From: a virus
Lineage: Duplodnaviria; Heunggongvirae; Uroviricota; Caudoviricetes
Virus record (IMG/VR): IMGVR_UViG_640753024_000006
Span: 1 to 27,584 of that record
Reading direction: 5' to 3' (one strand)
Length of the DNA stretch: 27,584 bases
Of the stretch, positions 1,963 through 27,584 are shown one piece after another. Numbering within the stretch: the first letter of the stretch is position 1; each line of letters begins with the position of its first letter. The notes under the pieces were generated by a model. That model was not told the origin of the DNA, searched no databases, and saw only the letters and a list, made by a program, of their open reading frames with translations. A program made the position numbers and the translations under genes.

Positions 1963-2730
1963 TTAAAAATCAGCCTGACTCGGGATCAGTTTTTGCCAGA
2001 TAGCTGAAACGTATTTTGCCTGGTGACGAGCGTCATCAAGTGCATTATGGCGCTCACCTTCGAATGGAATAGCCGTTCTGGCATCGAAGCCTATGGCTTT
2101 CCCCAGCTCAACGATTGTGCGTACATCGCGATCGTTGTAGTAACGCCACGGGCAGGGGATCCCCTGCCGTTCGTATGAACGGCGCAAAATCGTGTTGTCG
2201 AAGTTGGCTCCATTTCCCCAGATCTGAACAAAAAATTCACCGGAGTTTTCGGCGATAAATTCCCGCAATTGCAGTAGTGCATCATCTAACGGGATTTCAT
2301 CGGTCAGAATGGCAGATTGCGCCTCGCGTGATTGCTTAAGCCACCATTTAATGGTGTCACGATCAATGACTCCGCCAGCTGTTTCCAGATCGATGGTCTT
2401 GCTAAATTCCGGCCCCATCTCTCCGGTTACTGGATCAAAAAACTTACCGCCAATAGAGTTGATTGGCGCATCAGGATTTTTTCCCATCGTTTCAAGGTCG
2501 ATCATCAGATGGTGCCACACTCTGCTGGTGGATGTGATTTCGTGATGACCGTTCACATTAATTAAGGGAGCTGTCGCCTCGCCAGTTTCATTATCGCTGG
2601 CGTGGTCCTGATACCTGTCAGCATTCTCCTTGTGTGGATGTTCAGCGCCTTCCATTTCCTCCGGATCATTTTCCTGAACTTCAACCTGATTCTCTTCATT
2701 GAATGTTTCCTGGTATGTTGCGTCGCCCAT
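1963..2730 (-). CDS. DnaQ-like (DEDDh) 3'-5' exonuclease with acidic N-terminal extension
   Basis: Motifs LMIDLETMG (Exo I, D-x-E), ...WGNGANFD... (Exo II-like) and H-x(4)-D (HNALDDARH, Exo III) in the translation; sits in the early recombination-gene position. Confidence 0.7.
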
Positions 2731-2807
2731 CACCGCGCCACAATCAGGGCAGTTGCCGCCATCGCTCTGACCGCAGGCGGTGCAGATCTTTTCCGGTTCC
2801 TGTTGCG

Positions 2808-4340
2808 CTACTGGTTCACAGAATCGCGGGTTTCAATCCCCTTCACCCATTTCGGATCATTCGGATCGCTAATCCCTGCAACAAATTCACCACGTGATAC
2901 TGCAAGCAGTTCATCGGCGTCAGGCTGGCTGATATTGGCTGCCTGCATAATGTTGTTTACTTCGTCAGCGGTAACTTTTACCGGCCCTGGTTGTGCGGTC
3001 GTGTCAGATGCACCAGTATTTTGTTGTGAACCTGAGTATGTACCGTTTTTGCGGACGAAATATTCTTCTTTCGTGATTTCAGTAGCCCCGGCAGCCAGTG
3101 CCTTATCCAGACCAGAAAGTTTGTTTGCGCGACCGTATTTTTCGCCATCCTTGTCGGTGAAGAGGAAGTAGAACGGCCCCTCACGCTCTACAGATGGTTC
3201 GACTTCCACTTTGCATTCGGTTTTTTCGTTGTCCGGAATTGCCGTTTCCACTGCATCAGTTTCTGGTACTGGCGACGAGAGAGTATCAGTTGCGATCTGA
3301 TTTGTTCCTTCATCTTCAAACACGCCCTTTGTAGTCAGGTATTCAGTAATGTATTTGTTCAGTGCCACAGGGTCTTTGTGAATGTCGATCGGACGCTCAC
3401 GGACAAGGCCAAAAATAGTCTGGCGGTCGTAGCGAAGGGCATCAGGCTGTTTGCGCATTGATGCCGAGATACGCTTCCAGTCTTCGCGGTCGTTGTTGAT
3501 AACTTCATTTTTTGCCCAGCGATGGATGCTGCCGTCAATGTTTCCGGCATCAATGTCACCAGGCCACAGAGCGTAGGCCAGTTCATCATCCAGTGTTTTC
3601 CATGTCTGCTTGTATTCGCGATGAGTGGCAGCAATGGCCGGGTTGATTTTTCCTGTTGAATTTTCAGTGTTCTGTTGATTGGCTCTGGCGCGGGCGAGAT
3701 CAACAACAGACGTGTATTTTCCGGTTTCCTTGCGTTCACCTTCGCGACGTTTTTTCCAGATGCGCATCTCTGCCTGAATTTCGGGCCATTTGGCACCAGG
3801 CTTACATTTATGCTTAACCCACCCGATGGTATGCAGCTTAAGCTCCGGATACATGGCGTTAACTTCTGGCATTTTCATCAACGCTTCAACGATATGTCCG
3901 TCGAATGTTGCCATGTCTTCCTGCAACAATTCCTGCGCGCTAATCACCATATCAACGGTGATATTTTCACATGTGTCGAACTTAACCATGACAGCGTTCT
4001 GTACTTCAGGGGCCAGCTTGTCAAAAGTGACGTTCATCGGATCTGATTCAGTCTCAACCGGTACAAAGGAAGCAGACTCCTCATCCCAGCGGTTTTCCTG
4101 CATATATTCAGCATCCCAGGAATCGAGGGCAGGGCGGGGTATACCGGGTTTATCCTCGCAAACAAGAAATTTATAAGCGCAGTCCTGAGCAGCCGGATAA
4201 TGTTCCAGGAATTGCCAGTGAAATTTTGCGCGGGCGCGACGTTCATCACCAGCTTCAATGGCAGTGGCTACAGCGACTGCACCTTCTTCCTTTATTGCCT
4301 GTTCGTCCGGAATGGCGGCGCAAATAAAGACTTTACTCAT
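2808..4340 (-). CDS. Hypothetical early protein (510 aa), function unknown
   Basis: Long uninterrupted ORF on the same strand as exo/xis/int; no motif recognised by eye. Confidence 0.6.
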
Positions 4341-12696: not shown

Positions 12697-12863
12697 GAGA
12701 CCAGGCGAGGGAGAAATCCCTCGCCACCTCTGATGTGGCAGGCATCCTCAACGCACCCGCACGTAACCCGCTTCGGCGGGTTTTGTTTTTTCCTGGCATT
12801 CTGGTTTACAATTCGCACGCCAGCCTGAACAACTGGCACCTGCTGCGCCAGCAGAGACAACCG

Positions 12864-13142
12864 ATGGCGCACGATACCAAATTACACAATTCTAATGATT
12901 CTGCCGTCTTTGCCAGTAGGTGCGGACGGCGTTTTCACGCATTCAAATCAGACTGGTTCCAGCATCCTCCATGCACTGAAGAGCAGGCGGAATGGATAAT
13001 TCAGTGTTACCGCAGGCGCGGATACGAGGTTAAGAAAGCTCTTAGCCTCGACTACCGTCACTGGATAATCTCAGTCAGACTCCCTTACTCCGAACGCCCA
13101 CCGCGTTCATCCCGCACATACCAGCAACGCATCTGGAGGTAA
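12864..13142 (+). CDS. Hypothetical small protein, translationally coupled to the DUF968 gene
   Basis: Stop TAA sits inside the GGAGG RBS of the next gene (GTG 13144); start is uncertain (track ORF begins 12735). Confidence 0.4.
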   Translation: MAHDTKLHNSNDSAVFASRCGRRFHAFKSDWFQHPPCTEEQAEWIIQCYRRRGYEVKKALSLDYRHWIISVRLPYSERPPRSSRTYQQRIWR

Positions 13143-13143
13143 C

Positions 13144-14199
13144 GTGCGGGTATTACTTCGACCTGTTCCGGTACCGGAACTTGGGCTGGTGGTGCTAAAA
13201 CCGGGCCGTGAATCCATGCAGGTATTTCATAACCCTCGAGTTCTGGTGGAGCCGGAACCGAAAAGCATGCGCGGTCTGCCGTCCGGAGTCGTTCCTGCTG
13301 TTCGCCAGCCGCTGGCGGAGGATAAATCATTACTGCCATTTTTCAGCGATGAGCGGGTGATTCGTGCTGCTGGTGGTGCTGGGGCACTGTCTGACTGGCT
13401 GTTGCGTCATGTCAAATCCTGCCAGTGGCCACACGGCGATTATCATCACAGCGAAACCGTTATTCACCGATATGGTACCGGCGCAATGGTGTTGTGCTGG
13501 CACTGCGACAACCAGCTGCGTGACCAGACCTCCGAATCACTCGGGCAACTTGCTCACCAAAATTTGTCAGCATGGATGATTGACGTCATACGCCATGTAA
13601 TGAATGGCGCGCAGGAGCGTGAATTATCGCTGGCTGAATTATCCTGGTGGGCAACCATAAATAACGTAGCGGACGCACTACCGGAGACGGTGTTACGTCG
13701 TTCGCTGGGATTACGCGCGGAAAAAATTCGCTCAGTATACCGCGAGAGCGACATCGTGCCGGGAGAGCAGACCGCCACCAGCATGCTGAAGCAGCGCACA
13801 AAAAATATTGCGCTACTGCCTCACGCCCACCAGCAAAACCCGCCACAGGAAAAGACGGTGGTAAGCATTGCCGTTGATCCGGAGTCACCGGCTCAGTATC
13901 TCCAGCGCCAGAAACCACGACGGGAAGAGATGCCTGTATACACGCGTTGGGTAAAAACGCAGAAATGCATGACGTGTGGTAATCAGGCAGATGATCCGCA
14001 TCACATCATTGGTCATGGACTGGGAGGGATGGGAACAAAGGCTGATGATTTGTTTGTTATTCCGCTGTGCCGTAAATGCCATAGCGAACTACACGCCGGG
14101 GTAAAAGATTTTGAAGAAAAACACGGCAGCCAGCTGTTGTTGCTGATTCGTTTTTTAATGCACGCGAGAAATTCGGGTGTCCTGAAGTGGAAAGCATGA
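13144..14199 (+). CDS. DUF968-like protein with C-terminal HNH-like Cys/His cluster (YdfU-like)
   Basis: 351 aa; C-terminal CMTCGN...PHHIIGHG...PLCRKCHSELH; GGAGG RBS with GTG start. Confidence 0.6.
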   Translation: MRVLLRPVPVPELGLVVLKPGRESMQVFHNPRVLVEPEPKSMRGLPSGVVPAVRQPLAEDKSLLPFFSDERVIRAAGGAGALSDWLLRHVKSCQWPHGDYHHSETVIHRYGTGAMVLCWHCDNQLRDQTSESLGQLAHQNLSAWMIDVIRHVMNGAQERELSLAELSWWATINNVADALPETVLRRSLGLRAEKIRSVYRESDIVPGEQTATSMLKQRTKNIALLPHAHQQNPPQEKTVVSIAVDPESPAQYLQRQKPRREEMPVYTRWVKTQKCMTCGNQADDPHHIIGHGLGGMGTKADDLFVIPLCRKCHSELHAGVKDFEEKHGSQLLLLIRFLMHARNSGVLKWKA

Positions 14200-14565
14200 A
14201 TGACTGAACGCATAGAATTTGTTTTGCCTTACCCGCCAACGGTGAACACTTACTGGCGACGTCGTGGCAGCACATATTTTGTATCAAAAGCCGGTGAGCG
14301 TTATCGCCGTGATGTGGCGCTTATTGTTCGCCAGCAGCGACTGAAATTAAACCTGTCCGGACGGCTGGTGATAAAGATTATTGCAGAGCCACCGGATAAA
14401 CGTCGTCGTGACCTGGACAATATCCTGAAAGCACCACTGGATGCGCTGACGCATGCCGGACTTCTCATAGACGACGAGCAGTTTGATGAAATCAATATTG
14501 TGCGCGGTCAGCTCGTTCCTGGTGGGCGGCTGGGGATAAAAATCACAGAACTGGAGTGCGCATGA
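14200..14565 (+). CDS. rusA: Holliday junction resolvase RusA
   Basis: 121 aa; VLPYPPTVNTYW... and D..DN..K..LDAL residues characteristic of RusA; nin-region position before Q. Confidence 0.85.
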   Translation: MTERIEFVLPYPPTVNTYWRRRGSTYFVSKAGERYRRDVALIVRQQRLKLNLSGRLVIKIIAEPPDKRRRDLDNILKAPLDALTHAGLLIDDEQFDEINIVRGQLVPGGRLGIKITELECA

Positions 14566-15251
14566 ATAACCAGTATTTACAGTTTGTGCGTGAGCAGCTC
14601 ATTATCGCCACCGCTGATTTGAGTGGGGCAACAAAAGGTCAGCTTGAAGCCTGGCAAGAGAATGCCATGTTCGATACAGGGCGTTACAGGCGTAAAAAAA
14701 TCCGGTACCGCGATGAAGTGACTGGAAAAATGATAACGCGGGATAATCCACCAATCCCGGGAAAGCAATCGCTGGCGAAAGGTTCATCAATTGCCCTGGT
14801 CAGTCCGGTTGAGTTTTCGACATCATCATGGCGACGCGCCGTTCTGTCTCTTGAAGAGCATCAGAAGGCGTGGGTGCTGTGGGTATACAGTGAAAATCCG
14901 AGTTGGGATTATCAGGTGGTCATTGCGAAATGGGCGTGGGATAAGTTTCAGGTGCATTTTGGCACCAGAAAAATTACAGGGAAAACGCTTGAGCGTCTGA
15001 AGAAATTAATCTGGCTGGCGGCGCAGGATGTCAGGGGGAGGATTACTGGGCGTGACGTCTACCAGCGACAGGAACTTGCCAGACTGTGTGGAGTTAAGCC
15101 TGACAACTGGAGCCATAATTATGCGAACTACTGGCGTGAGATGTGCGACATTTTTAAGAAACTCGATACAGAATCCTTGATTTGCACCGTGAAAATGAGA
15201 TCGCAACAAAAAGCGACCTTTTCACGACGAGATATTGCAAAAGTCAATTAA
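14562..15251 (+). CDS. Putative late-gene antiterminator Q (Qin QuuQ-like)
   Basis: Position after rusA and before a promoter plus short-leader terminator; ATGA overlap with the rusA stop; family assignment by position and memory only. Confidence 0.5.
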   Translation: MNNQYLQFVREQLIIATADLSGATKGQLEAWQENAMFDTGRYRRKKIRYRDEVTGKMITRDNPPIPGKQSLAKGSSIALVSPVEFSTSSWRRAVLSLEEHQKAWVLWVYSENPSWDYQVVIAKWAWDKFQVHFGTRKITGKTLERLKKLIWLAAQDVRGRITGRDVYQRQELARLCGVKPDNWSHNYANYWREMCDIFKKLDTESLICTVKMRSQQKATFSRRDIAKVN

Positions 15252-15297
15252 ATCGCATACATTTTATGTAAATGTGATATTTTGCCGTATAGTGTGT
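15235..15297 (+). promoter_or_regulatory. pR'-like late promoter and leader (putative qut region)
   Basis: TTGCAA at 15235-15240, 17-nt spacer, TACATT -10-like hexamer; also a TATAGT hexamer at 15288-15293; strong terminator immediately downstream. Confidence 0.4.
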
Positions 15298-15322
15298 AAA
15301 CCCGCTTAAATGCGGGTTTTTT
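15298..15322 (+). terminator. tR'-like rho-independent terminator
   Basis: aacccgc-ttaaat-gcgggtt stem-loop followed by TTTTTT. Confidence 0.8.
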
Positions 15323-15395
15323 GCTTAACTCTGTGGACCTTTTTATCTGTAGTTGTAAGATATGGATATTCTTACAATTTAGGTCGGTGAGCTTA

Positions 15396-16160
15396 ATGGA
15401 AGAACAGCACGGTAATTACTTTATAAAACGAATTCAGTTGATTGGAAGGGGTGCATTTGGCTTTGTTGAACACGTTAAGGTTTACAACCTCAACAAGGGT
15501 GAATGTGGGGATTATGCTAGAAAGGTTTTAGCCCCCGAAAAACCAGAGCTTTTGGCGCAAATAGAGCAGTTTAGAAGGCGTTTTAAAAGGGAGGTCGTGT
15601 ATCAATCACATTGCGTACATAGCAATATTGTTCCTATTTATTTGTGCGATTTGTTTGCCGAGAATCCATGGTTCATTATGGATAAAGCAGAATGTGATCT
15701 TGAGCACGAAATAACGAACAACCTTCTTACAACAGATCAAAAAATTTCAATAGTGAAAATGGTATTAGATGGTGTAGCTCACATCCATGCGAAAGGCTAT
15801 TTACACAGAGATATAAAACCATTTAATGTCTTGCGATTTAGCGACGGAACATACAAGGTGTCTGATTTTGGTCTGGTAAAAGATACAAATCCCGAAGGGG
15901 ATACCACTAAATTGACCGAGATCGGTACCCGTATGGGAAGTACAAGATATATGGCTCCCGAGATTTTATATAATGCCGAGTATTCAGTTAAGACTGATGT
16001 TTATGCGGTGGGGCGGTTAATTGAGGACTTAAATTTAGATGATAAAAAAATAAAGCCTATCATAGCGAAGTGTACCAGGATGGATAAAGATGATAGATAT
16101 CAGACAATAGATGATGTGGCGTTTGATTTTGTGCATTCTTTTTTAAGGAGTGAGTCATGA
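15396..16160 (+). CDS. Eukaryotic-like (Hanks-type) Ser/Thr protein kinase, minimal kinase domain (255 aa)
   Basis: Subdomain motifs GRGAFGFV (Gly loop), ARK (Lys), HRDIKPFN (catalytic loop), DFG, MAPE (APE), DVYAVG; AT-rich; ATGA overlap with the downstream gene. Confidence 0.85.
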   Translation: MEEQHGNYFIKRIQLIGRGAFGFVEHVKVYNLNKGECGDYARKVLAPEKPELLAQIEQFRRRFKREVVYQSHCVHSNIVPIYLCDLFAENPWFIMDKAECDLEHEITNNLLTTDQKISIVKMVLDGVAHIHAKGYLHRDIKPFNVLRFSDGTYKVSDFGLVKDTNPEGDTTKLTEIGTRMGSTRYMAPEILYNAEYSVKTDVYAVGRLIEDLNLDDKKIKPIIAKCTRMDKDDRYQTIDDVAFDFVHSFLRSES

Positions 16161-16900
16161 TTCAGCTGATAGCGACTTCATCATTCTCGTATCCAAAAGA
16201 ACCAGGTAGGGTCAACGAAGATTCATTGCTTCCTCCCAAAATTGTAGGGGATGGCATCTTATTTGCCGTAGCTGATGGTGTAGGTTCATACACTGGTGCC
16301 AGTCAGGCTTCATCAATGGCAATTGCTGAACTTTCAGCATTGACAAGCTTATCTTTTGACACAGTTCCGGATGTATTTGATGAAGTTAAGCGAAAGGTTA
16401 TGTCGTTAGCTGATGTTAATGATGAGTTCGATAAAGCTGCTACTACACTTACGTTTTGTTATGTTTGTGATAGCGGAATTATTATTGGTCATATTGGTGA
16501 TTGTCGTTTGTATTGCATTGGAGAGAAGAAAGCATACCAATTGACGAAGGACGATACCAGGCATCAGATGCTAATTGATCAGAATATTTTTAAACCCAGA
16601 GATTTGAAGGATAAACCGGGCAAAAATATCTTAACGACGGCGATAGCCTCAAATGTTGATATGGAATACGACTGTGATTTTATCACATGGAAAGATTTAC
16701 CTAGTATTAACGGGGTATATCATCTGTGTATCATGTCTGATGGGGTTCATAACGTTTGGGAAAAACGCCCCAGATTTACATCAAATACGATGAGTAATAG
16801 TCAGAAGTTTTCTAATGGCATTTTGCGTCGTATAGAGAGAGCCGGACCTGATGATGACTTTTCTTTAGTAAGTATAATGGTGCGTGTGACGTCAGATTAG
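16157..16900 (+). CDS. PP2C-family (PPM) Ser/Thr protein phosphatase
   Basis: Motifs RVNEDS, FAVADGVGS (DGxG), HIGDCRLY (GDSR-like) and MSDGV; 247 aa; coupled to the kinase gene. Confidence 0.8.
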   Translation: MIQLIATSSFSYPKEPGRVNEDSLLPPKIVGDGILFAVADGVGSYTGASQASSMAIAELSALTSLSFDTVPDVFDEVKRKVMSLADVNDEFDKAATTLTFCYVCDSGIIIGHIGDCRLYCIGEKKAYQLTKDDTRHQMLIDQNIFKPRDLKDKPGKNILTTAIASNVDMEYDCDFITWKDLPSINGVYHLCIMSDGVHNVWEKRPRFTSNTMSNSQKFSNGILRRIERAGPDDDFSLVSIMVRVTSD

Positions 16901-16973
16901 TTGTATAAACTCAGTAGGGAATGCTAATTTCACATACAACATAGTTAAAGAAAACTTAATTTTAATGTAAAAA

Positions 16974-16996
16974 GGCTGCCCTCAGGCGGTCTTTTT
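16974..16996 (+). terminator. Probable intrinsic terminator after the kinase-phosphatase pair
   Basis: ggctgcc-ctca-ggcggtc hairpin (with G-U pairs) followed by TTTTT. Confidence 0.45.
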
Positions 16997-17119
16997 ATGC
17001 TCGAAAATTGATGCAGTACGTTAAACGCGCTGGTGGTTGCGAATACCGGTCTTTCAGCTTGCTGGCTTTTTAGACAAGAGTTATTGGTATGTCACGTTAA
17101 CCAGAAAAGGGAAAAAGAC

Positions 17120-17317
17120 ATGCTAAAACAGCAGGATATGACCGAAACCGCCAGAGTGGTGTTTAATGAATTAAGCGTCACCGAACCGGCGACCGTCGGG
17201 GAAATTGCGCAGAATACTTACCTTTCACGCGAACGCTGCCAGTTAATCCTGACCCAGCTTGTTATGGCGGGTCTGGCAGATTATCAGTTCGGTTGTTACA
17301 GACGCCTTCTGCAGTGA
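17120..17317 (+). CDS. Small winged-helix DNA-binding protein (65 aa), possible methylase-associated regulator
   Basis: ATG 17120 with purine-rich RBS; MarR/wHTH-like TVGEIAQNTYLSRERCQLILTQL; immediately upstream of the DNA MTase gene. Confidence 0.45.
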   Translation: MLKQQDMTETARVVFNELSVTEPATVGEIAQNTYLSRERCQLILTQLVMAGLADYQFGCYRRLLQ

Positions 17318-17467
17318 AGGCTTTTTAATTTGTGGTAATGGGCGGCTGGTGGGTGTTAGCGGCACCTGCCAGCCATCTGCTCATGCGTTGGGGTCACAAG
17401 CAAACCTCAGGCCCATCTGCTTTGCGCAAAAGCAGTATGAGCCTATCAGAGAAGTGCTTATTGATCT

Positions 17468-18517
17468 ATGACTAATACTGTAAAAATATCCAGTTGTGAG
17501 TTAATCAACGCTGATTGCCTGAAATTTATCCAGACCTTACCGGAAAACTCTGTCGATCTGATAGTCACAGACCCGCCATACTTTAAAGTGAAGCCCGAGG
17601 GCTGGGATAACCAGTGGGAGGGCGACGATGATTACCTGAAATGGCTGGACCAGTGTCTGGCGCAGTTCTGGCGGGTACTGAAGCCTGCCGGAAGTCTTTA
17701 CCTGTTCTGTGGTCATCGCCTGGCATCTGACACCGAAATCATGATGCGTGAGCGCTTTAATGTGCTGAACCACATTATCTGGGCGAAGCCGTCCGGACGC
17801 TGGAACGGGTGCAATAAGGAAAGTCTGCGGGCGTATTTTCCGGCAACAGAGCGCATTCTGTTTGCAGAACATTATCAGGGACCGTATCGCCCGAAAGATG
17901 ATGGCTATGTGGCACAGGGGCGCGAGCTAAAACAGCACGTCATGGCCCCGCTGATTTCTTACTTTCGTGATGCGCGTAAATCACTGGGAATAACGTCAAA
18001 ACAGATAGCGGAAGCCACCGGAAAGAAAAACATGGCTTCGCACTGGTTTGGTACCAGTCAGTGGCAGTTACCGAACGAGGGTGATTACAACAAATTGCAG
18101 GCGTTGTTTGCGCGTGTTGCGGCAGAAAAACATCAGCGCGGGGAACTGGAAAAACCACACCACCAGCTGGTCAGCACATACAGTGAGCTGAACCGGCAGT
18201 ATACGGAATTGCTGAGTGAATATAAAAATTTGCGGCGGTATTTCGGTGTGACGGCGCAGGTTCCGTACACCGATGTCTGGACGCATAAACCGGTGCAGTA
18301 CTATCCAGGGAAACATCCGTGCGAAAAACCGGCAGAAATGCTGCAGCAGATAATCAACGCGAGCAGTCGTCCGGGAGACCTGGTTGCAGATTTTTTTATG
18401 GGTTCAGGTTCAACGGTAAAAGCGGCGATGGCACTGGGGCGTTGTGCGATTGGTGTTGAGCTGGAGACAGGACGTTTTGAACAGACAGTCAGGGAAGTTC
18501 AGGATTTAATCGTTTGA
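17468..18517 (+). CDS. DNA methyltransferase, N6-adenine (or N4-cytosine) beta-class
   Basis: DPPY motif (VTDPPYF) near the N-terminus and FxGxG SAM motif (FFMGSGST) near the C-terminus; 349 aa; same position as the methylase in Stx-type phages. Confidence 0.85.
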   Translation: MTNTVKISSCELINADCLKFIQTLPENSVDLIVTDPPYFKVKPEGWDNQWEGDDDYLKWLDQCLAQFWRVLKPAGSLYLFCGHRLASDTEIMMRERFNVLNHIIWAKPSGRWNGCNKESLRAYFPATERILFAEHYQGPYRPKDDGYVAQGRELKQHVMAPLISYFRDARKSLGITSKQIAEATGKKNMASHWFGTSQWQLPNEGDYNKLQALFARVAAEKHQRGELEKPHHQLVSTYSELNRQYTELLSEYKNLRRYFGVTAQVPYTDVWTHKPVQYYPGKHPCEKPAEMLQQIINASSRPGDLVADFFMGSGSTVKAAMALGRCAIGVELETGRFEQTVREVQDLIV

Positions 18518-18566
18518 AACGGATGAGATTGCAGAATTAATTACGCACCATTATTATTCTGCTCCC

Positions 18567-18642
18567 GGCCCTTTAGCTCAGTGGTGAGAGCGAGCGACTC
18601 ATAATCGCCAGGTCGCTGGTTCAAATCCAGCAAGGGCCACCA
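18567..18642 (+). tRNA. tRNA with anticodon CAU (Ile2/lysidine type, ileX/ileZ-like, or Met)
   Basis: Cloverleaf folds by hand: 7-bp acceptor GGCCCTT/AAGGGCC, D-arm GCTC..GAGC, anticodon loop CTCATAA, T-loop GGTTCAAATCC, CCA end. Confidence 0.8.
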
Positions 18643-18643
18643 A

Positions 18644-18720
18644 CCGTCACCAGTTCATCAGGAAAGAGCGTCAACCCTTTAAGTTGAGTGTGCGAGGTTC
18701 GAGTCCCCGGTGGCGGTCCA
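18644..18720 (+). tRNA. Aberrant tRNA-like element (anticodon-loop CCTTTAA, apparent anticodon UUU with C at position 33); possibly a degenerate tRNA
   Basis: Acceptor CCGTCAC/GTGGCGG (one G-U), T-loop GGTTCGAGTCC and CCA end, but non-canonical C33 and a mismatched T-stem. Confidence 0.35.
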
Positions 18721-18722
18721 GT

Positions 18723-18798
<76 letters not shown>

Positions 18799-18801
18799 TA
18801 T

Positions 18802-18876
<75 letters not shown>

Positions 18877-19153
18877 GCATTTGCAACAAGCCTTATTGTA
18901 TTGCGGCACTGGTGTATTTTTTATTACGTGGGAGCAGGTTGTTTTGAAAAAGCATTCTGTTCTCTGGCTATAATTTGAGGCCAGGTGTAGCCTCAGTGCT
19001 GATTTTTTTACGACAGCAGAATGGTGCATTATCGGTGGAGATTTTGTATTTCCTGGCAGGGTCGGTGATGCATCATTCCGATGTTGTAAGCATCGCTCAG
19101 AATAACGTTGAGATTAATCGCGTACTAAGCAAAACCTGGAAATACATCCTTAA

Positions 19154-19178
19154 CCGCCGCACCAGGCGGTTTTTTTTA
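19154..19178 (+). terminator. Rho-independent terminator
   Basis: ccgcc-gcacca-ggcgg hairpin followed by eight T. Confidence 0.7.
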
Positions 19179-19303
19179 TTCATTTTTTTTTCATGGCTCG
19201 CTACGGCGGGCCTTTTTCATATCCTCGCCACACCCGGCGCATATCACATCAAATAACGCCGCGCAAAAGGCATCTGCGGGTGCCTTTGACGGGGTGTTTT
19301 TAC

Positions 19304-19327
19304 GGGCCGCTGGCGGCCCTTTTTTAT
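19304..19327 (+). terminator. Rho-independent terminator just upstream of the lysis genes
   Basis: gggccgc-tg-gcggccc hairpin followed by TTTTTT. Confidence 0.75.
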
Positions 19328-19344
19328 TTACAGGAGAAAAACGT

Positions 19345-19737
19345 ATGTCTGAACCCTTATCCGGTTCCGGCACGGCTGCGGCGCTCGGTGGGGCGACGGT
19401 GTACGGGCTGTTTACCGGAACGGATTTCGGGATTGTGTTTGGTGCGTTCGCCGGGGCGTTATTTGTGGCAACGATGCCGCAGGCGCTTTCAGTCTGGCGT
19501 GTGGTGGCGCATTTTCTGGTGTCGTTTATTGTCGGCGTGCTGGGAGCGCGTGTGCTGTCAGCCTGGATTGCATCAAAAACAGGGTATGACGGTACATCGG
19601 CAGATGCGCTGTGTGCGGTGCTGGTATCGGTGGTGTCGGTGAAGGTTCTGTCGTTCATCCACCAGCAGGATATTGCATCGCTGGTGTCCGGTGTGTTCTC
19701 CCGCCTGCGGGGCGGAGGTGGCGGCAATGTTAAGTAA
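19345..19737 (+). CDS. Putative holin (multi-pass membrane protein, 130 aa)
   Basis: AGGAG RBS before ATG 19345; several hydrophobic helices; first gene of a cluster ending in an endolysin. Confidence 0.5.
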   Translation: MSEPLSGSGTAAALGGATVYGLFTGTDFGIVFGAFAGALFVATMPQALSVWRVVAHFLVSFIVGVLGARVLSAWIASKTGYDGTSADALCAVLVSVVSVKVLSFIHQQDIASLVSGVFSRLRGGGGGNVK

Positions 19738-20002
19738 CCTTCCCGGATTGCTGAATGTGGCGTTATGCACGGTTATCGTGCTGACGCTCTTTTTTTATCG
19801 TCGTCGCGATTCCAGACATAAGCCGCTGATGTCATGGCTGGCCTGGCTGCTGATGCTGCTGTATGCCTTTGCACCACTCAGTTATCTGTGCGGTCGCCCG
19901 TTAGCGGCGAACTGGCTGGCGGTGGGGCTTAATCTGCTGTTCTGCGTGCTGGTGATACGTGCACGCGGGAACGTTTCAAAAATCCTTTCATTACGGAGGT
20001 GA
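19727..20002 (+). CDS. Second small membrane protein of the lysis cassette (holin/antiholin-like, 91 aa)
   Basis: GGAGG RBS; start overlaps the previous stop; 2-3 hydrophobic helices; stop abuts the endolysin start. Confidence 0.45.
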   Translation: MLSNLPGLLNVALCTVIVLTLFFYRRRDSRHKPLMSWLAWLLMLLYAFAPLSYLCGRPLAANWLAVGLNLLFCVLVIRARGNVSKILSLRR

Positions 20003-20004
20003 GT

Positions 20005-20382
20005 ATGCCCGGTAAATTCAGATTCAGTCGTCGAAGTGAGAAAAATCTGGAGGGCGTCAAACCACAGCTGGTTGCTGTTGTTCGCCGTGCGCTGGAGCTG
20101 ACGGAGGTTGACTTCGGTATTACGGAAGGCCTGCGCAGTAAGTATCGCCAGAAGCAGCTGGTCGCGGAAGGGAAAAGCCAGACCATGAACAGCCGCCACC
20201 TGACCGGTGATGCGGTGGATGTTGTGGCCTACATTGGTAGCCAGGTGTCATGGGACTGGCCTCTGTACGAGAAAATCGCGCAGGCATTTAAGCAGGCTGC
20301 CGCAGAGCTGGGAACTGCCATCGAATGGGGCGGGGACTGGAAAACACTGAAAGACGGGCCTCACTTTCAGTTGAAGCGCTAA
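20005..20382 (+). CDS. Endolysin, peptidase M15 family (L-alanyl-D-glutamate peptidase, T5 Lys-like)
   Basis: Zinc-ligand pattern H..D (SRHLTGDAVD) and C-terminal H (GPHFQL); overall resemblance to T5 endolysin as I recall it; GGAGG RBS. Confidence 0.8.
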   Translation: MPGKFRFSRRSEKNLEGVKPQLVAVVRRALELTEVDFGITEGLRSKYRQKQLVAEGKSQTMNSRHLTGDAVDVVAYIGSQVSWDWPLYEKIAQAFKQAAAELGTAIEWGGDWKTLKDGPHFQLKR

Positions 20383-20396
20383 TAACCAGGTGGTTT

Positions 20397-20579
20397 ATGA
20401 GCCGAAAACACTGGACACACAGAATGCCGCGAACGGCGGCGAAATGGGCACTGGTAGCGATACTGGTGCCTTTTTTCCTGGTGGGATGCGTTAGCCTGGA
20501 TAAGGTGCGCCAGCTTTTCGATACGGCCTCGCAGGTCTGCGAAATTGTCGAAAGTGCCAGGCAGTGTATGCAGAACTGA
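20397..20579 (+). CDS. Small lipoprotein (possible o-spanin/Rz1-like or Cor-like exclusion lipoprotein)
   Basis: AGGTGG RBS; signal peptide ending in lipobox LVGC; 60 aa; directly after the endolysin. Confidence 0.4.
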   Translation: MSRKHWTHRMPRTAAKWALVAILVPFFLVGCVSLDKVRQLFDTASQVCEIVESARQCMQN

Positions 20580-20666
20580 TCGCCTGTAAGAGCAGAATAT
20601 TGTTGAATCTAAATTTACTTTGAACAGTGGCCCGGATGGAAAGGGCATCTAAATAGGAGCAGAAAA

Positions 20667-20876
20667 ATGTTAACTGTAAAAGTCATGTCTCAAAATGGTG
20701 GGGAAGAGCTCCATTGCGGGCGTAGCATTGGCTATCATCCAGAGCAGCGGAGTATTGCCGTATCGGGAAAGGATGGGAAAGTCATTCTGAAAGATGGAGA
20801 TATTGCTTATGTAATGAACCAAAACGCTCAAATAATATCTGTTTATCGGCCCAATAATAGTCAGAAAAACATTTGA
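20667..20876 (+). CDS. Hypothetical small protein (69 aa), AT-rich moron
   Basis: AGGAG RBS before ATG 20667; no recognised motif. Confidence 0.45.
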   Translation: MLTVKVMSQNGGEELHCGRSIGYHPEQRSIAVSGKDGKVILKDGDIAYVMNQNAQIISVYRPNNSQKNI

Positions 20877-20999
20877 ATTTCGCAAGTCCAAAGTTCAGTG
20901 GTGATCGTTATCAACTAATTGAAATAACAAGCTTATGTTTGTGTAATTGGTGATATAGCATGTTAATGCTGAATATCAGCGTCAACATGGAGTTATACA

Positions 21000-21215
21000 A
21001 TGGTTTTTAAACACTATTACGTGAACAAAAATGCTCAGAGCAATGGCGATCATGAGGTGCATGCTGAGGAATGTTCATATCTTCCTGCTGTAGCTAACCG
21101 CGATTACCTTGGTTACTATAGTGATTGTTCTTCGGCGGTAACAGAGGCAAAGGCCAAAGGATATTCCCGGGTGAATGGTTGCTATTGGTGTGCCAATAAG
21201 TGCCACACGTCTTAA
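21000..21215 (+). CDS. Hypothetical small Cys-rich protein (71 aa)
   Basis: Six Cys including a C-Y-W-C pair; followed by a clean terminator at 21238-21257. Confidence 0.45.
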   Translation: MVFKHYYVNKNAQSNGDHEVHAEECSYLPAVANRDYLGYYSDCSSAVTEAKAKGYSRVNGCYWCANKCHTS

Positions 21216-21237
21216 TCAATTGTCAATAAACCATAAA

Positions 21238-21257
21238 GGCCGCTCTGCGGCCTTTTT
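21238..21257 (+). terminator. Rho-independent terminator
   Basis: ggccgc-tct-gcggcc hairpin followed by TTTTT. Confidence 0.75.
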
Positions 21258-21519
21258 CATGTTAAAAAAGATTGCGGCATTACAGCAGCCCTTCACACTG
21301 AGTGGCTGCGATAATGTGAGAAATAAAAAACCGGCAGGGGAAATCCATTGAAGATTTGCCGGTGGCAAAAAGATGGCCATGCTTTCAACCTTAGTCGCAG
21401 GGTTACGGAGTGCAACTACGAATGCTGCCGGTATATGGCTGAATGGCGTTTCAATGATGTACGTCATCTTATCTGTAAATGTTAATGATAAAAGCTCTCA
21501 TTTGTGCGGGTCCTTCCGG

Positions 21520-21720
21520 TGGGGTGGCCTGCCACGGGGCGGAAGGCGCGCGGGTTTTCGCTATTTATGAAAATTTTCCGGGGAAAATCATGTCGGTACT
21601 TCTCGAACATAACTATTTGTTTTTTCTAATATCGAATCCGTAAAAGGTCCGACATGAAAACGCCTAAAAAAGTCATTTTCGGGCACTTTCATGTCGGACC
21701 CTGTGTTTGTTGTGAGACTG
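21520..21720 (+). other. Lambda-like cos site (cosQ-cosN-cosB) upstream of Nu1
   Basis: gggtccttccggtg (cosQ-like), then GGGCGGAAGGCG followed by cgcgggttttcgctatttatgaaaattttccgg, matching my memory of the lambda left end after cosN; 14-bp inverted repeat ggtccgacatgaaa / tttcatgtcggacc at 21646-21700 where lambda cosB has R sites. Confidence 0.7.
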
Positions 21721-21724
21721 TTTC

Positions 21725-22279
21725 ATGAAGGTTAATAAAAAGAAACTTGCCGAAATTTTCAACGTGGATCCGCGAACGATTGAACGCTGGCAGTCTCAGG
21801 GACTCCCTTGCGTCTCCGGAGGTGGTAAGGGCGTTGAATCTGTATTTGATACCTCCATGGCAATTCAGTGGTATGCACAGAGGGAGGCTGATATCGAAAA
21901 TGAAAAACTCCGTAAAGAGGTTGAGGATTACAGAGCTGCCAGTGAGGCAGATCTCCAGCCTGGGACTATTGAGTACGAACGCCATCGACTTACGCGTGCG
22001 CAGGCCGACGCACAGGAGCTGAAGAATGCCAGAGACTCCGCAGAAGTGGTGGAAACCGCATTCTGTACTTTCGTGCTGTCACGGATCGCAGGTGAAATTG
22101 CCAGTATTCTTGACGGGATCCCTCTCTCGGTACAGCGGCGTTTTCCGGAACTGGAAAACCGACATGTTGATTTCCTGAAACGGGATATCATCAAAGCCAT
22201 GAACAAAGCAGCCGCGCTGGATGAACTGATATGGCTTACAGCCGTGTTTCGACTTTCTCCGGGGATTATCTCCGCGTAA
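21725..22279 (+). CDS. nu1: Terminase small subunit Nu1 homolog, C-terminus replaced at a deletion junction
   Basis: N-terminal ~170 aa closely resemble lambda Nu1 as I recall it (conserved ...[60 protein letters not shown]...); the last residues run into lom-derived DNA. Confidence 0.85.
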
Positions 22280-22476
22280 CTGACAACAAGGGGAAAACGC
22301 ACGACGTGCTGACCGGAAGTGATGACGGTCGCCACAGCAACACGTCTCTGGCGTGGGGGGCTGGCGTGCAGTTTAACCCGACCGAATCCGTGGCCATTGA
22401 TATTGCTTATGAAGGCTCCGGCAGTGGTGACTGGCGCACTGACGGTTTCATCGTGGGTGTCAGTTATAAATTCTGA
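22240..22476 (+). pseudogene. lom: 3' remnant of lom (Ail/Lom outer-membrane protein family)
   Basis: Translation [25 protein letters not shown]...DGFIVGVSYKF is a Lom/Ail C-terminal beta-barrel end (terminal F); no N-terminal part or signal peptide present. Confidence 0.8.
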
Positions 22477-22502
22477 TTAGCCAGGTAACACAGTGTTATG
22501 AC

Positions 22503-22529
22503 AGCCCGCCGGTTCAGGCGGGCTTTTTT
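22503..22529 (+). terminator. Rho-independent terminator between lom and stf
   Basis: agcccgcc-ggttca-ggcgggct hairpin followed by TTTTTT. Confidence 0.8.
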
Positions 22530-22540
22530 GTGGGGTGAAT

Positions 22541-25500
22541 ATGGCAGTAAAGATTTCAGGTGTACTGAAAGACGGCACAGGAAAACCGGTACAGAACTGC
22601 ACAATCCAGCTGAAAGCAAAACGTAACAGCACCACGGTGGTGGTGAACACACTGGCCTCAGAAAATCCGGATGAAGCCGGGCGTTACAGCATGGACGTTG
22701 AGTACGGTCAGTACAGCGTTATTCTGTTGGTGGAAGGCTTCCCGCCGTCACATGCCGGGACCATCACCGTGTATGAAGATTCCCGACCCGGTACGCTGAA
22801 TGATTTTCTCGGTGCCATGACGGAGGATGATGCCCGTCCTGAGGCACTGCGCCGTTTTGAACTGATGGTGGAAGAGGTGGCGCGTAACGCGTCCGCGGTG
22901 GCACAGAACACGGCAGCCGCGAAGAAGTCAGCCAGCGATGCCGGCACATCAGCCCGTGAGGCGGCAACCCATGCGACTGATGCTGCAGGCTCAGCACGCG
23001 CAGCCAGCACGTCAGCCGGACAGGCCGCGTCGTCGGCTCAGTCAGCGTCTTCCAGCGCAGGAACGGCATCAACAAAGGCTACTGAAGCATCAAAAAGTGC
23101 TGCTGCTGCAGAGTCCTCAAAAAGCGCGGCAGCTACCAGTGCCAGTGCCGCGAAAACGTCAGAAACGAATGCGGCAGCGTCACAAAAATCTGCAGCCACT
23201 TCTGCATCCGCCGCGACCACAAAGGCGTCAGAAGCTGCCACCTCAGCCCGGGATGCGGCGGCCTCAAAAGAGGCAGCGAAATCATCAGAAACGAACGCAT
23301 CATCAAGCGCCAGTAGTGCAGCTTCCTCGGCAACGGCGGCAGGAAATTCCGCGAAGGCGGCAAAGACGTCCGAGACGAACGCCAGGTCTTCTGAAACGGC
23401 AGCGGGACAGAGTGCCTCAGCTGCGGCAGGCTCAAAAACAGCGGCTGCGTCGTCTGCCAGCGCCGCGTCAACAAGTGCCGGGCAGGCCTCAGCCAGTGCC
23501 ACCGCCGCCGGAAAATCGGCAGAAAGCGCCGCATCATCCGCTTCAACAGCCACAACGAAGGCTGGCGAAGCCACTGAGCAGGCCAGCGCAGCAGCGAGGT
23601 CTGCTTCTGCAGCAAAAACCTCTGAAACAAATGCAAAGACTTCAGCAGACAATGCTGCTTCCTCTAAGGCGGCAGCCGCATCGTCCGCTGGTTCAGCGGC
23701 GTCATCGGCATCATCTGCGTCTGCTTCAAAAGATGAGGCGACCAGACAAGCGTCAGCAGCGAAAGGTAGTGCCACGACAGCAACAACGAAAGCATTAGAG
23801 GCGGCAGGCAGTGCGACGGCTGCATCTCAGAGCAAAGTTGCTGCTGAATCCGCGGCAACGCGCGCCGAGACAGCGGCAAAACGGGCAGAGGATATTGCAT
23901 CCGCCGTGGCGCTTGAGGATGCGAGCACGACGAAAAAGGGGATAGTCCAGCTCAGCAGTGCGACCAACAGTACGTCTGAAACGCTGGCGGCAACGCCAAA
24001 GGCAGTAAAATCAGCCTATGACAATGCAGAGAAACGTCTGCAGAAAGACCAGAACGGCGCTGATATACCCGATAAGGGACGCTTCCTGAACAACATTAAC
24101 GCGGTCAGTAAAACAGACTTTGCTGATAAGCGTGGTATGCGTTATGTGCGGGTTAACGCTCCTGCAGGTGCAACATCTGGAAAATATTACCCTGTTGTTG
24201 TTATGCGTTCTGCTGGCTCAGTAAGCGAACTGGCATCAAGGGTCATTATCACCACGGCAACGCGAACCGCAGGCGATCCGATGAATAACTGCGAGTTTAA
24301 CGGATTTGTTATGCCTGGTGGCTGGACTGACAGGGGGCGTTATGCTTATGGAATGTTCTGGCAATATCAAAACAATGAACGAGCCATCCACTCAATAATG
24401 ATGAGTAATAAGGGCGATGATTTGCGCTCTGTGTTCTATGTTGATGGCGCTGCTTTCCCTGTTTTTGCGTTTATCGAAGATGGCCTGTCAATATCCGCAC
24501 CTGGTGCTGATCTCGTTGTTAATGATACGACCTATAAGTTTGGTGCAACAAATCCAGCGACTGAATGTATCGCGGCGGACGTTATCCTTGATTTTAAGAG
24601 TGGGCGTGGTTTTTATGAGTCCCATTCGTTAATCGTTAACGATAACTTGTCGTGCAAAAAACTTTTTGCCACAGACGAAATTGTAGCGCGTGGTGGTAAT
24701 CAGATTCGAATGATAGGTGGGGAGTATGGTGCATTATGGCGTAATGATGGCGCTAAAACTTACCTGCTGCTTACCAATCAAGGTGATGTTTATGGTGGCT
24801 GGAATACATTAAGACCGTTTGCTATTAATAACGCAACCGGCGAACTGGTTATTGGAACCAAACTGTCCGCAAGTCTGAACGGTAATGCATTAACAGCAAC
24901 AAAGCTGCAAACGCCAAGACTGGTTTCTGGTGTTGAGTTTGATGGTTCCAGAGATATTACTTTAACCGCTGCGCATGTGGCTGCTTTTGCCAGAAGGGCA
25001 ACGGATACATATGCCGATGCGGATGGTGGCGTTCCCTGGAATGCCGAATCAGGCGCTTACAATGTCACCCGCTCTGGCGACACCTATATTCTGGTTAACT
25101 TCTATACCGGAGTCGGAAGTTGCCGGACCCTGCAGATGAAGGCGCATTACAGAAATGGTGGTCTGTTCTACCGTTCCTCAAGAGATGGCTATGGTTTTGA
25201 GGAAGACTGGGCAGAAGTTTATACCTCGAAAAATCTTCCACCAGAAAGCTACCCAGTCGGCGCACCAATCCCGTGGCCATCAGATACCGTTCCGTCTGGT
25301 TATGCCCTGATGCAGGGGCAGACTTTTGACAAATCTGCTTACCCGAAACTTGCAGCCGCTTATCCGTCAGGTGTGATCCCTGATATGCGTGGCTGGACGA
25401 TTAAGGGCAAACCTGCCAGTGGTCGGGCCGTATTGTCTCAGGAACAGGACGGCATTAAATCGCACACCCACAGCGCCAGCGCATCCAGTACGGATTTGGG

Positions 25501-25954
25501 GACGAAAACCACATCGTCGTTTGATTACGGCACTAAATCCACGAATAACACCGGGGCGCATACGCACAGTCTGAGTGGCTCTACGGGGTCTGCCGGTGTT
25601 CATACTCATGGTAATGGTATTCGTTGGCCAGGAGGCGGCGGTTCTGCGTTATCATTTTATGATGGCGGTGGGTTCACTTATGTCCAGAATTCACAGTATC
25701 AAGTAAGCCCGGAGACTTCTTCCTATAGATCGTATTATCAACGTATTCAGACACAGTCAGCAGGTGCTCATACCCACTCGCTGTCTGGTACTGCAGCAAG
25801 TTCTGGCGCACATGCACATACTGTAGGTATTGGTGCGCATACGCACTCCGTTGCGATTGGTTCACATGGACACACCATCACCGTTAACGCTGCGGGTAAC
25901 GCGGAAAACACCGTCAAAAACATCGCATTTAACTATATTGTGAGGCTTGCATAA
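22541..25954 (+). CDS. stf: Side tail fibre protein Stf (long Ala/Ser-rich repeat shaft, C-terminal HxH-repeat tip)
   Basis: N-terminus [26 protein letters not shown]... matches lambda Stf as I recall it; ~350-aa Ala/Ser/Thr-rich low-complexity region with KxSETNA repeats; C-terminal GAHTHS/HxH repeats typical of fibre tips. Confidence 0.9.
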
Positions 25955-26538
25955 TGGCATTCAGAATGAGTGAACAAGCACGGACCATAAAAATTTATAA
26001 TCTGCTGGCCGGAACTAATGAATTTATTGGTGAAGGTGACGCATATATTCCGCCTCATACAGGTCTGCCAGCAAACAGTACCGATATTGCACCACCAGAT
26101 ATTCCTGCTGGCTTTGTGGCTGTTTTCAACAGTGATGAGGCATCGTGGCATCTCGTTGAAGACCATCGGGGTAAAACGGTTTATGACGTAGCGTCAGGGG
26201 ACGAGTTATTTATTTCTGAACTCGGTCCGTTACCGGAAAATGTTACCTGGTTATCGCCGGAAGGGGAGTTTCAGAAGTGGAACGGCACAGCCTGGGTGAA
26301 GGATACGGAAGCAGAAAAACTGTTCCGGATCCGGGAGGCGGAAGAAACAAAAAACAACCTGATGCAGGTAGCCAGTGAGCATATTGCGCCGCTTCAGGAT
26401 GCTGCAGATCTGGAAATTGCAACGGAGGAAGAAACCTCATTGCTGGAAGCCTGGAAAAAGTATCGGGTGTTGCTGAACCGTGTTGATACATCAACTGCAC
26501 CTGATATTGAGTGGCCTACGAACCCTGTCAGGGAGTAA
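25954..26538 (+). CDS. tfa: Tail fibre assembly chaperone Tfa
   Basis: 194 aa; start overlaps the stf stop (TAATG); conserved Tfa C-terminal region (...[25 protein letters not shown]...). Confidence 0.85.
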
Positions 26539-26592
26539 TCATTGGGATTATGCCGCAGCACGTCTTAAGCAAGAACGTGCTGCGGTTGGATG

Positions 26593-27249
26593 CTATTTTT
26601 TCCCTGAAGCGGAAAACATTACTACAGTACCTTGAACCTTGGTTTTAACATTCTCGAAATGCTCTGAGAGTATATGTGTTAAGCCTTCTTCGGAATCTTT
26701 TGTGTTTGAAAAGATGCCTTTCTGATTGTAAATGCGCATCAGTTTTTGACCGAAGCTATTGTGCACAACTCCATCGCCAAGAATTGTGGCTCCGTATAGA
26801 GTTCCATCGTCAGTTAAGGCCTGCGCCGCATTGCGTATTACACAGCTTTTTGTAGATATATTTCCAGGCAGGCAGTGAAGAAGGTAAAACATGGAAATGG
26901 AATCAAATTGACCATGTAACGCCGCGGGATAAGGTTCAAAAACATCATGGCTAATTTTATGTTTAATTTTTGATTCCCCAGCCCTTGTCGATGCCGCGTT
27001 CAGGCTAGCTTCGTTCAAATCCATTAAAGATATCAGACTACTCTCAGGTACGTGGGTAAGGTAAAACCCAGTTCCAACACCAATATCCAGATGGTTGTTA
27101 CCTACATGTTCCAGAAAGTGTGGAAGAAGGTGTTCCTTTGTAGGACATCCCCATGCAAGCCGATTTGATACTCCCAAAACCCACCAGTCATAAAGCTTTA
27201 GGGTAAGTGGTGTGTAAATTTTAGCCCCATCATCTGTGTTTTTTTTCAT
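26593..27249 (-). CDS. Class I SAM-dependent methyltransferase (substrate unknown), AT-rich
   Basis: Motif I HLDIGVGTGFY (hh-D-h-G-x-G-x-G); GGTGA RBS before ATG 27249; opposite strand to the fibre genes. Confidence 0.75.
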   Translation of the reverse strand: MKKNTDDGAKIYTPLTLKLYDWWVLGVSNRLAWGCPTKEHLLPHFLEHVGNNHLDIGVGTGFYLTHVPESSLISLMDLNEASLNAASTRAGESKIKHKISHDVFEPYPAALHGQFDSISMFYLLHCLPGNISTKSCVIRNAAQALTDDGTLYGATILGDGVVHNSFGQKLMRIYNQKGIFSNTKDSEEGLTHILSEHFENVKTKVQGTVVMFSASGKK

Positions 27250-27317
27250 TGATTTCACCATGTTATAGTTTTATTTGTGAATTAAATCAATTATGGCGAT
27301 GAATTACAAGGGGTTAA

Positions 27318-27584
27318 ATGCTGCCGCAGCATAGCGATATTGAAATAGCCTGGTATGCTTCGATACAGCAGGAGCCGAATGGCTGGAAGACCGTCACCAC
27401 ACAGTTCTACATCCAGGAATTCAGTGAGTATATTGCGCCACTGCAGGATGCTGTAGATCTGGAAATCGCAACGGAGGAAGAAAGATCGTTGCTGGAGGCA
27501 TGGAATAAATATCGGGTATTGTTGAATCGTGTTGATACATCAACTGCACCTGATATTGAGTGGCCGACTTCACCTGCAGAGTAA
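27318..27584 (+). pseudogene. Truncated second tfa copy (Tfa C-terminal domain only)
   Basis: C-terminal ~50 aa ([46 protein letters not shown]) near-identical to the Tfa C-terminus at 26383-26538; the N-terminal 35 aa are unrelated. Confidence 0.5.

Follow-up and report, generated by a model that had tools for sequence, protein, structure and literature searches.

An 18.7-kb deletion joining nu1 to lom in a lambda-like prophage of Escherichia coli E24377A, with a candidate deletion hotspot at its left breakpoint

In the prophage studied here, the reading frame of a terminase small subunit (Nu1) runs on into DNA that encodes the 3' end of lom in another frame. Is this a native phage arrangement or the scar of a deletion, and why were these two points joined? 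A sequence-only reading of the window (the whole stretch of DNA analyzed, 27,584 nt) had taken the Nu1–lom fusion for a scar left by the loss of the whole A-to-J morphogenesis module, about 15–20 kb. We aligned the window with intact relatives and with lambda, searched phage and bacterial genome collections for the junction, and compared its left breakpoint with those of other deletions. The features of the window and the loci discussed are collected in Table 1.

The closest intact relative for both arms is the prophage of E. coli TW10590 (NZ_CP035850.1). Positions 21321–22231 of the window (cos–nu1) match it at 99.1% identity and positions 22230–27565 (lom–stf–tfa–methyltransferase) at 97.9%, and in the intact prophage 18,706 bp lie between the two arms, in agreement with the size first estimated. 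Compared with TW10590, 19 genes are missing (A, W, B, C, D, E, FI, FII, Z, U, V, G, T, H, M, L, K, I, and J), as are the 5' 355 nt of lom; the loss of the entire module is thereby confirmed. A three-way alignment resolves the junction as CTGA[TA]TGGC, with a microhomology of 2 bp as the only overlap between the arms. The left parent reads ...CTGATA/CCGGGG (in longer form ...GATGAACTGATA/CCGGGG), the right parent ...GCGGGTA/TGGCTT (in longer form ...GGCGGGTA/TGGCTTAC), and the deletion product ...CTGA[TA]TGGCTTAC, where the slash marks the breakpoint. In the alignment with lambda, the junction corresponds to nt 696–697; the left match stops at 697, and the right match lies within lom and stf. 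The alignment to an intact relative thus supplied the exact junction and its microhomology and also corrected several details: the join is at 22230/22231 and not near 22235–22245, the Nu1 parent is followed to residue 169 and not to about 172, and the Lom C-terminus in another frame was recognized correctly, with its length revised from 79 residues to about 80 codons.

Table 1 Features of the window, junctions and loci (the slash marks a breakpoint; square brackets enclose bases common to both parents).
Feature	Position	Strand	Basis or remark
Lysis cassette: two holins (Phage_holin_8, Phage_holin_3_7), M15 endolysin, small lipoprotein-like ORF	19345–20579	+	Pfam
cos region (putative)	21508–21700	+	Identical to cos of the intact prophages TW10590, 504211 and AST85
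cosQ-like GGGTCCT	21508–21514		
cosN GGGCGGAAGGCG	21537–21548		
Three cosB repeats, CATGTCGG type	21589–21599, 21646–21659 (inverted), 21687–21700		
nu1 remnant, codons 1–169	21725–22231	+	Pfam Phage_Nu1; TW10590 alignment
Deletion junction	22230–22231	no strand	TA common to both parents; base-by-base three-way alignment with TW10590
lom 3' remnant, ~80 codons	22232–22476	+	Pfam Ail_Lom; 97.9% identity to TW10590
Terminator after lom, retained: GC-rich hairpin and T run cagcccgccggttcaggcgggctttttt	22498–22528	+	Direct sequence reading
stf, side tail fibre, full length	22541–25954	+	Pfam phage_tail_N, Gp34_trimer, Collar
tfa, tail fibre assembly, full length, 194 aa	25954–26538	+	Pfam Caudo_TAP; length equal to TW10590
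M18-type junction, CTGATA/TCGAC			In-frame 244-aa Nu1::Lom fusion; M18 and 13 other complete genomes (14 in total)
EC416-type junction, CTG[ATACCG]TTATG			
TUM9812 junction, CTGATA/TGCCAG			J 3' end
Loci with the shared left breakpoint (candidate hotspot)			L002, L003, L011, L028, L082, L103, L117, L124, L141, L144, L151, L157, L170, L176, L186, L196, L204, L207, L212, L213, L230, L233
Loci with other re-used breakpoints			L010, L012, L014, L015, L016, L017, L043, L044, L053, L064, L067, L083, L111, L131, L133, L213
Chimeric proteins			P0013, P0019, P0023, P0037, P0040, P0042, P0046

A megablast search of positions 21400–22900 against 50,697 phage records split the query in two at one point. 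Positions 21549–22231 match the terminase small-subunit region, with 98.5% identity to phage IdasGreatGrand, while 22230–22900 match the lom 3' end and stf of many lambdoid phages at up to 98.8%. None of the 239 matching phage records holds the Nu1 and lom parts together or adjacent, so a native phage arrangement is rejected. Since the arms are collinear with an intact phage, the absence of the intervening DNA represents a deletion. The deletion connected the TA of nu1 codon 169 with another TA within lom and took out the 18,706 bp that comprise A (the terminase large subunit) through J, with B (portal) and C/Nu3 among them, and the beginning of lom. Nine other deletions in the same phage family, mapped likewise, have microhomologies of 1–7 nt of any composition. 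We therefore consider it very probable that the region is a real scar, left by a single illegitimate, microhomology-mediated deletion in a lambda-like prophage between potC and potB of E. coli E24377A. Its mechanism would fall into the class of template switching or end joining primed by 2 nt. The intact ancestor is reconstructed from its sister in TW10590, which sits at a different chromosomal site, and presumably resembled it. Alternatively, ectopic illegitimate recombination, and not a simple internal deletion, could have brought together arms of different phages; the slightly unequal identities of the arms to TW10590 are compatible with this.

An assembly artefact, that is, a collapse between two prophages of one genome, deserves consideration because an E. 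coli genome carries several lambdoid prophages with near-identical nu1 and lom/stf (a median of three matching places per genome). The overlap at the join, however, is only 2 bp, with no shared repeat, and equivalent junctions are present in many finished genomes. Moreover, an independently produced second assembly (SRA run SRR9425412) contains this protein in the same surroundings, which shows that the junction is not such an artefact; we give this explanation practically no weight.

What remains of the two genes can be described precisely. The 184-aa ORF at 21725–22279 matches the full Pfam Phage_Nu1 profile (1–164/164, E = 2.7e-90). Its residues 1–169 are identical to those of the intact TW10590 protein, with 1 nt different in the 507 nt of the remnant, and the ORF then runs to 22279 via 15 foreign codons. 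The N-terminal DNA-binding and assembly region is thus retained, whereas 15 foreign residues stand in place of the native C-terminal tail (residues 170–181, which belong to the gpA-binding end), and the adjacent gene for the partner gpA is deleted. The Nu1 remnant keeps the parts for DNA binding and self-assembly; its last 12 residues are gone, along with gpA. The 81-aa ORF at 22231–22476, in a frame other than that of nu1, covers positions 120–199 of the 199 in the Ail_Lom profile (E = 2.4e-42). A complete Ail/Lom barrel would take about 199 aa and a signal peptide; this remnant lacks a promoter, a start region, and a signal peptide. The scar itself is without function.

Outside the deletion, the prophage is well preserved. 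Its cosQ-like, cosN, and cosB sequences agree in every base with those of three intact prophages, and we predict a cos of the lambda type, with cosN and cosB; the names of these elements were assigned after lambda, whose counterparts we take them to be. The cosB part is common to the isolated phage IdasGreatGrand. From Q to nu1, lysis genes included (12766–22030), the element is collinear with the intact prophage of strain 504211 at 98.7% identity without gaps, and relatives carry an annotated terminator at the position that matches the hairpin after lom. The product of stf is as long as TW10590 stfR (1137/1139 aa) and has an N-terminal, a trimerisation, and a collar domain. Likewise, int, xis, the repressor region, the replication genes, and Q are each as long as their counterparts in intact prophages. 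The earlier view that cos, the lysis cassette, stf, and tfa are intact is therefore upheld: cos is identical, the lysis stretch is collinear without gaps, and stf and tfa are of full length. From its gene content, the element would no longer be able to build particles by itself.

Several further observations concern the same region and the flanking cargo. The 12-nt cohesive end is GGGCGGAAGGCG, compared with GGGCGGCGACCT in lambda, and the three CATGTCGG-type cosB repeats accompany a 21-like Nu1 N-terminus; IdasGreatGrand pairs a lambda cosN with cosB of the type found in the E24377A prophage. A second defect lies in the RecE-like exonuclease gene (1963–4340, minus strand), which encodes 824 aa in relatives and is split here into ORFs of 256 and 510 aa; compared with 504211, about 96 nt are missing at a 32-nt repeat, and there are small indels. 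Four tRNA genes (CAT, Lys-TTT, Thr-TGT, and Gly-TCC) lie at 18567–18876, downstream of a DNA methyltransferase gene, and the equivalent place holds Ile-Arg-Arg in TW10590 and AST85 and Ile-Thr-Gly in 504211. A pair of genes for a Ser/Thr protein kinase and a PP2C phosphatase (15321–16900) directly follows the Q antiterminator gene; it is present in 504211 and absent from TW10590. Cargo also occupies the prophage ends (1–468 and 26593–27261), where a gene for a DUF2335 protein adjoins int and a minus-strand gene for a class I SAM-dependent methyltransferase comes after tfa. The methyltransferase gene is itself followed, at 27318–27584, by part of another tfa copy.

Retention of cos in an element devoid of head and tail genes raises the possibility that it is a cos-bearing satellite, packaged and spread by a co-resident or infecting lambdoid phage of the same cosB/Nu1 specificity, as the sequence-only reading had suggested. 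Its cos does not differ from the cos of intact prophages in other ETEC strains, and int/xis, the replication genes, and Q are of full length and collinear with intact relatives. There is also a precedent: lambdoid prophages of O157 Sakai that are defective in morphogenesis or terminase still excise and replicate and are sometimes packaged by co-resident prophages with near-identical cos (PMC2669165). The Sakai prophages, however, have mostly kept nearly their full length and carry point or IS defects, whereas the E24377A element, known from sequence alone, has lost the whole module and is undersized, with its approximately 28 kb amounting to roughly 58–60% of a lambda-size genome. Lambda packaging has a lower limit of about 75–78% of the genome; a 28-kb monomer falls below the minimum and a dimer exceeds the maximum. 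Helper mobilisation is doubtful because of this size. No gene for capsid-size control or packaging redirection was found among the 10 ORFs scanned by Pfam, the remaining ORFs being judged by the annotation of relatives, and the truncated Nu1 could compete with the helper Nu1 at cosB. Furthermore, the junction is unique to one lineage and is not a recurring architecture of the kind that marks PICI, cf-PICI, or P4-like satellites; it occurs in 0 of 5,426 complete E. coli genomes. Mobilisation by a helper is thus a known possibility that finds no support here, and we regard a satellite as unlikely. With the junction restricted to a single lineage, there is likewise no sign of an architecture that is conserved and selected.

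Records of the exact 184-aa fusion protein are limited to E. coli E24377A (CP000800.1) and the assembly from SRR9425412. To the right of the prophage lie potB, potA, and pepT, which locates it between potC and potB; its parent is expected to have measured about 47 kb. The absence of the junction from the complete genomes, the small divergence from TW10590, and the restricted occurrence of the protein together suggest a recent, lineage-specific deletion. The ETEC prophages TW10590, 504211, and AST85 share the same cos, the 21-like Nu1 N-terminus, and the lysis and regulatory modules at 96–99% identity, and those of 504211 and AST85 occupy the same potC site as the E24377A prophage. TW10590 and 504211 possess the complete A–J module, whereas the E24377A copy lacks its 18.7 kb. 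In AST85, part of this module is replaced by a second, integrase-bearing element: at 36790–41773 of its locus (L009), the stretch from mid-portal to J has given way to genes for a tyrosine integrase, an HTH regulator, a BRO-N protein, and an Icd-like protein. This insert looks like a small integrative element inside the late operon.

The E24377A element is a noh-type defective prophage, as are DLP12 and Qin of E. coli K-12, and a product of ordinary prophage decay. Its ORFs show a lambda-type nu1 homologue beside cos and no terminase large subunit or head and tail genes between nu1 and the tail-fibre genes, and its flanks are collinear with an intact phage. In DLP12 (nohD-aaaD'-tfaD) and Qin (nohA fused to stfQ), too, cos and the nu1 homologue were kept, one internal deletion to the tail-fibre region took the head and tail genes, and the upstream lysis genes remained. 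The end points differ. In DLP12, tfa directly follows cos–nohD plus 309 bp of A (lambda 1018 to 22119), and Qin has nohA fused to stf at lambda 719, so that the left ends are at 1018, 719, and, in E24377A, 697, with right ends in tfa, stf, and lom, respectively. The K-12 elements are far more decayed, with the integrity of stf lost and int absent from Qin, whereas the E24377A element is otherwise nearly intact. An even closer parallel is the M18-type Nu1::Lom allele, in which stf and tfa are kept as well. Its left breakpoint follows Nu1 Ile169 as in E24377A, and its right end is in the same part of lom, 19 nt further on. It differs in having a lambda-type instead of a 21-type Nu1 N-terminus, no microhomology, and an in-frame fusion, and it sits in a much more degraded prophage.

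This coincidence of left ends proved to be widespread. Among other E. coli genomes in which the nu1 3' end lies close to the lom 3' end, we found three further junction classes (M18, EC416, and TUM9812; Table 1), with left ends equal within 3 nt and different right ends. For an unbiased sample, 120 IMG/VR loci holding a nu1 24-mer (lambda 655–678) were used; they contained five distinct junctions at 697–703, one at 720, and no other anywhere in lambda 679–754. Targeted scans for GCGCTGGATGAACTGATA followed by non-C (metagenomes and IMG/VR) and for ...GATACC followed by non-G (IMG/VR), combined with the earlier cases, gave about 23 distinct DNA-level junctions at this position; at control positions in the same scan, lambda 681/682 gave none and 720 gave one. 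Scans for variant alleles and of GTDB species representatives returned chance matches only. A census of the best 120 of 490 Nu1-like protein clusters agrees with the DNA: 25 distinct tails begin after Ile169 and 6 after Pro170, 31 in all, compared with about 10 at all other positions from 165 to 177. These tails derive from Lom, Tfa, Stf, U, V, E, FI, portal, I, and others, in all frames. Altogether, the left breakpoint at lambda nt 697–700 (nu1 codons 169/170) is common to at least 35–40 distinct deletions with different right partners and sizes of about 50 bp to >23 kb. It reads GAACTGATA^CCGGGG and precedes the start codon of gpA by 11–14 nt. By their left flanks, the junction-bearing loci can be divided into at least five haplotypes, every one of which has identical copies that carry no junction; this indicates that the events were independent or, failing that, distributed among different backgrounds.

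Every partner that was mapped is located downstream, in direct orientation. Three are in A, one in W just upstream of B, others in E and Z, about seven in J, others in lom, about six in stf, and some beyond tfa. TA immediately precedes the junction in 17 of the 19 mapped right parents; ATA, GATA, or a trailing CC is modestly enriched in them, and the join sometimes extends to ATA, GATA, or TACC. A fixed 3' end ...GATA that pairs by its last two or more bases would give this pattern. On this evidence, we consider the case evenly balanced for lambda nt 697–700 as a site-specific deletion hotspot of lambda-type prophages, with the E24377A junction as one of its products.

Recurrence of the same breakpoint might also reflect selection (domestication), whereby the truncated Nu1, the tail-fibre genes, or the cargo benefits the host; Nu1 could serve as a cosB-binding decoy against related phages, and the cargo would comprise the kinase/phosphatase pair, methyltransferases, and tRNAs. 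A great many E. coli carry a Nu1 that is cut off or fused precisely after residue 169/170, the breakpoint coincides with a codon boundary, and nohD of DLP12 is still functional once recombined into lambda (PMC3945230). However, ends in nu1 codons 171–181 would preserve residues 1–169 equally well, yet they are about 15-fold rarer per nucleotide, and four small deletions (1.5–2 kb, little more than A) begin at the same base; selection for Nu1 cut at 169 leaves both facts unexplained. Many relatives keep A fragments of 56–500 codons, so there is no strong selection against such fragments, and the tails after residue 169 are mutually unrelated and occur in all frames. The E24377A junction, in addition, is young and rare. 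We consider it improbable that selection has kept the arrangement.

If the clustering arose at the DNA level, a shared left end with varied partners would imply a fixed DNA end or, alternatively, a process that re-uses old junction coordinates. In the first model, an intrinsic nick, break, or replication stall at A697 would leave such an end, and a template switch or end joining primed by 2 nt would follow. In the second, recombination intermediates between co-resident prophages would be processed or trimmed at homology boundaries, and an old breakpoint coordinate would be copied into a new deletion. Neither model has apparently been described for lambda.

Other candidate causes did not fit. 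Insertion of IS629/IS1203 at nu1-697 with subsequent adjacent deletion was rejected: chimeric queries of nu1 and an IS end matched 0 and 1 of 5,426 genomes, the IS in the single match is about 580 bp away, and the apparent flank similarity in the top matches is a ranking bias. No IS stands at the junction in any of 27 junction-bearing loci, one of which (L196) has an ISAs1-family gene about 1 kb further on. The only Chi-like sequence, GCTGGATG, has two mismatches and lies upstream at the wrong distance, with nothing Chi-like at the other re-used sites. A strong hairpin was excluded by a fold z-score of -0.3. Pin/Gin-type invertase quasi-sites, a pseudo-cosN, an integrase core, a rolling-circle nick site, and RusA (which cuts 5' of CC), all compared by consensus sequence, do not suit the cut position or the partners. 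A general TA-specific recombinase is at odds with other junctions of the family, which use TT, CA, AG, ACCG, GCAGC, and CCATTAA. The GATACC motif alone is insufficient, as left breakpoints occur only at 694 and 2265 among its 13 occurrences in lambda 1–23000. A paper on the Rpn nuclease gives no site preference.

Re-use of breakpoints with different partners was also observed at lambda 719/720, 880, 956–960, 1018, 2268/2271, 2359/2362, and 3467–3469. Right ends are re-used too; one lom position is common to 52F4 and LR-58-1, and lambda 8063 is common to two of the listed loci (L064 and L213). Public databases contain many chimeric proteins in which Nu1(1–169) is fused in frame to Lom, Tfa, U, V, E, portal, or FI and which bear the name of the downstream partner, for instance a 244-aa 'Ail/Lom family' protein (L002, 5788–6522) and a 312-aa 'tail terminator'.

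Taken alone, the scar documents how one ETEC prophage became defective. It also corrects the annotation of two ORFs, as both the 184-aa 'terminase small subunit' and the 81-aa 'Lom' are remnants. The breakpoint appears to mark a strong, apparently undescribed deletion hotspot in lambda-type nu1, and our literature search returned nothing on a hotspot at nu1 697. Prophage decay is usually viewed as random deletion filtered by selection; because the left breakpoint is not random, this description is incomplete. If the hotspot is real, the decay of lambdoid prophages would be channelled in part by a specific DNA-level process. This would help to explain why noh-type remnants, with cos–nu1 beside tail-fibre genes, are so common in E. 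coli, and would account for the many chimeric 'Nu1-X' proteins that databases annotate as Lom, tail terminator, FI, and the like.
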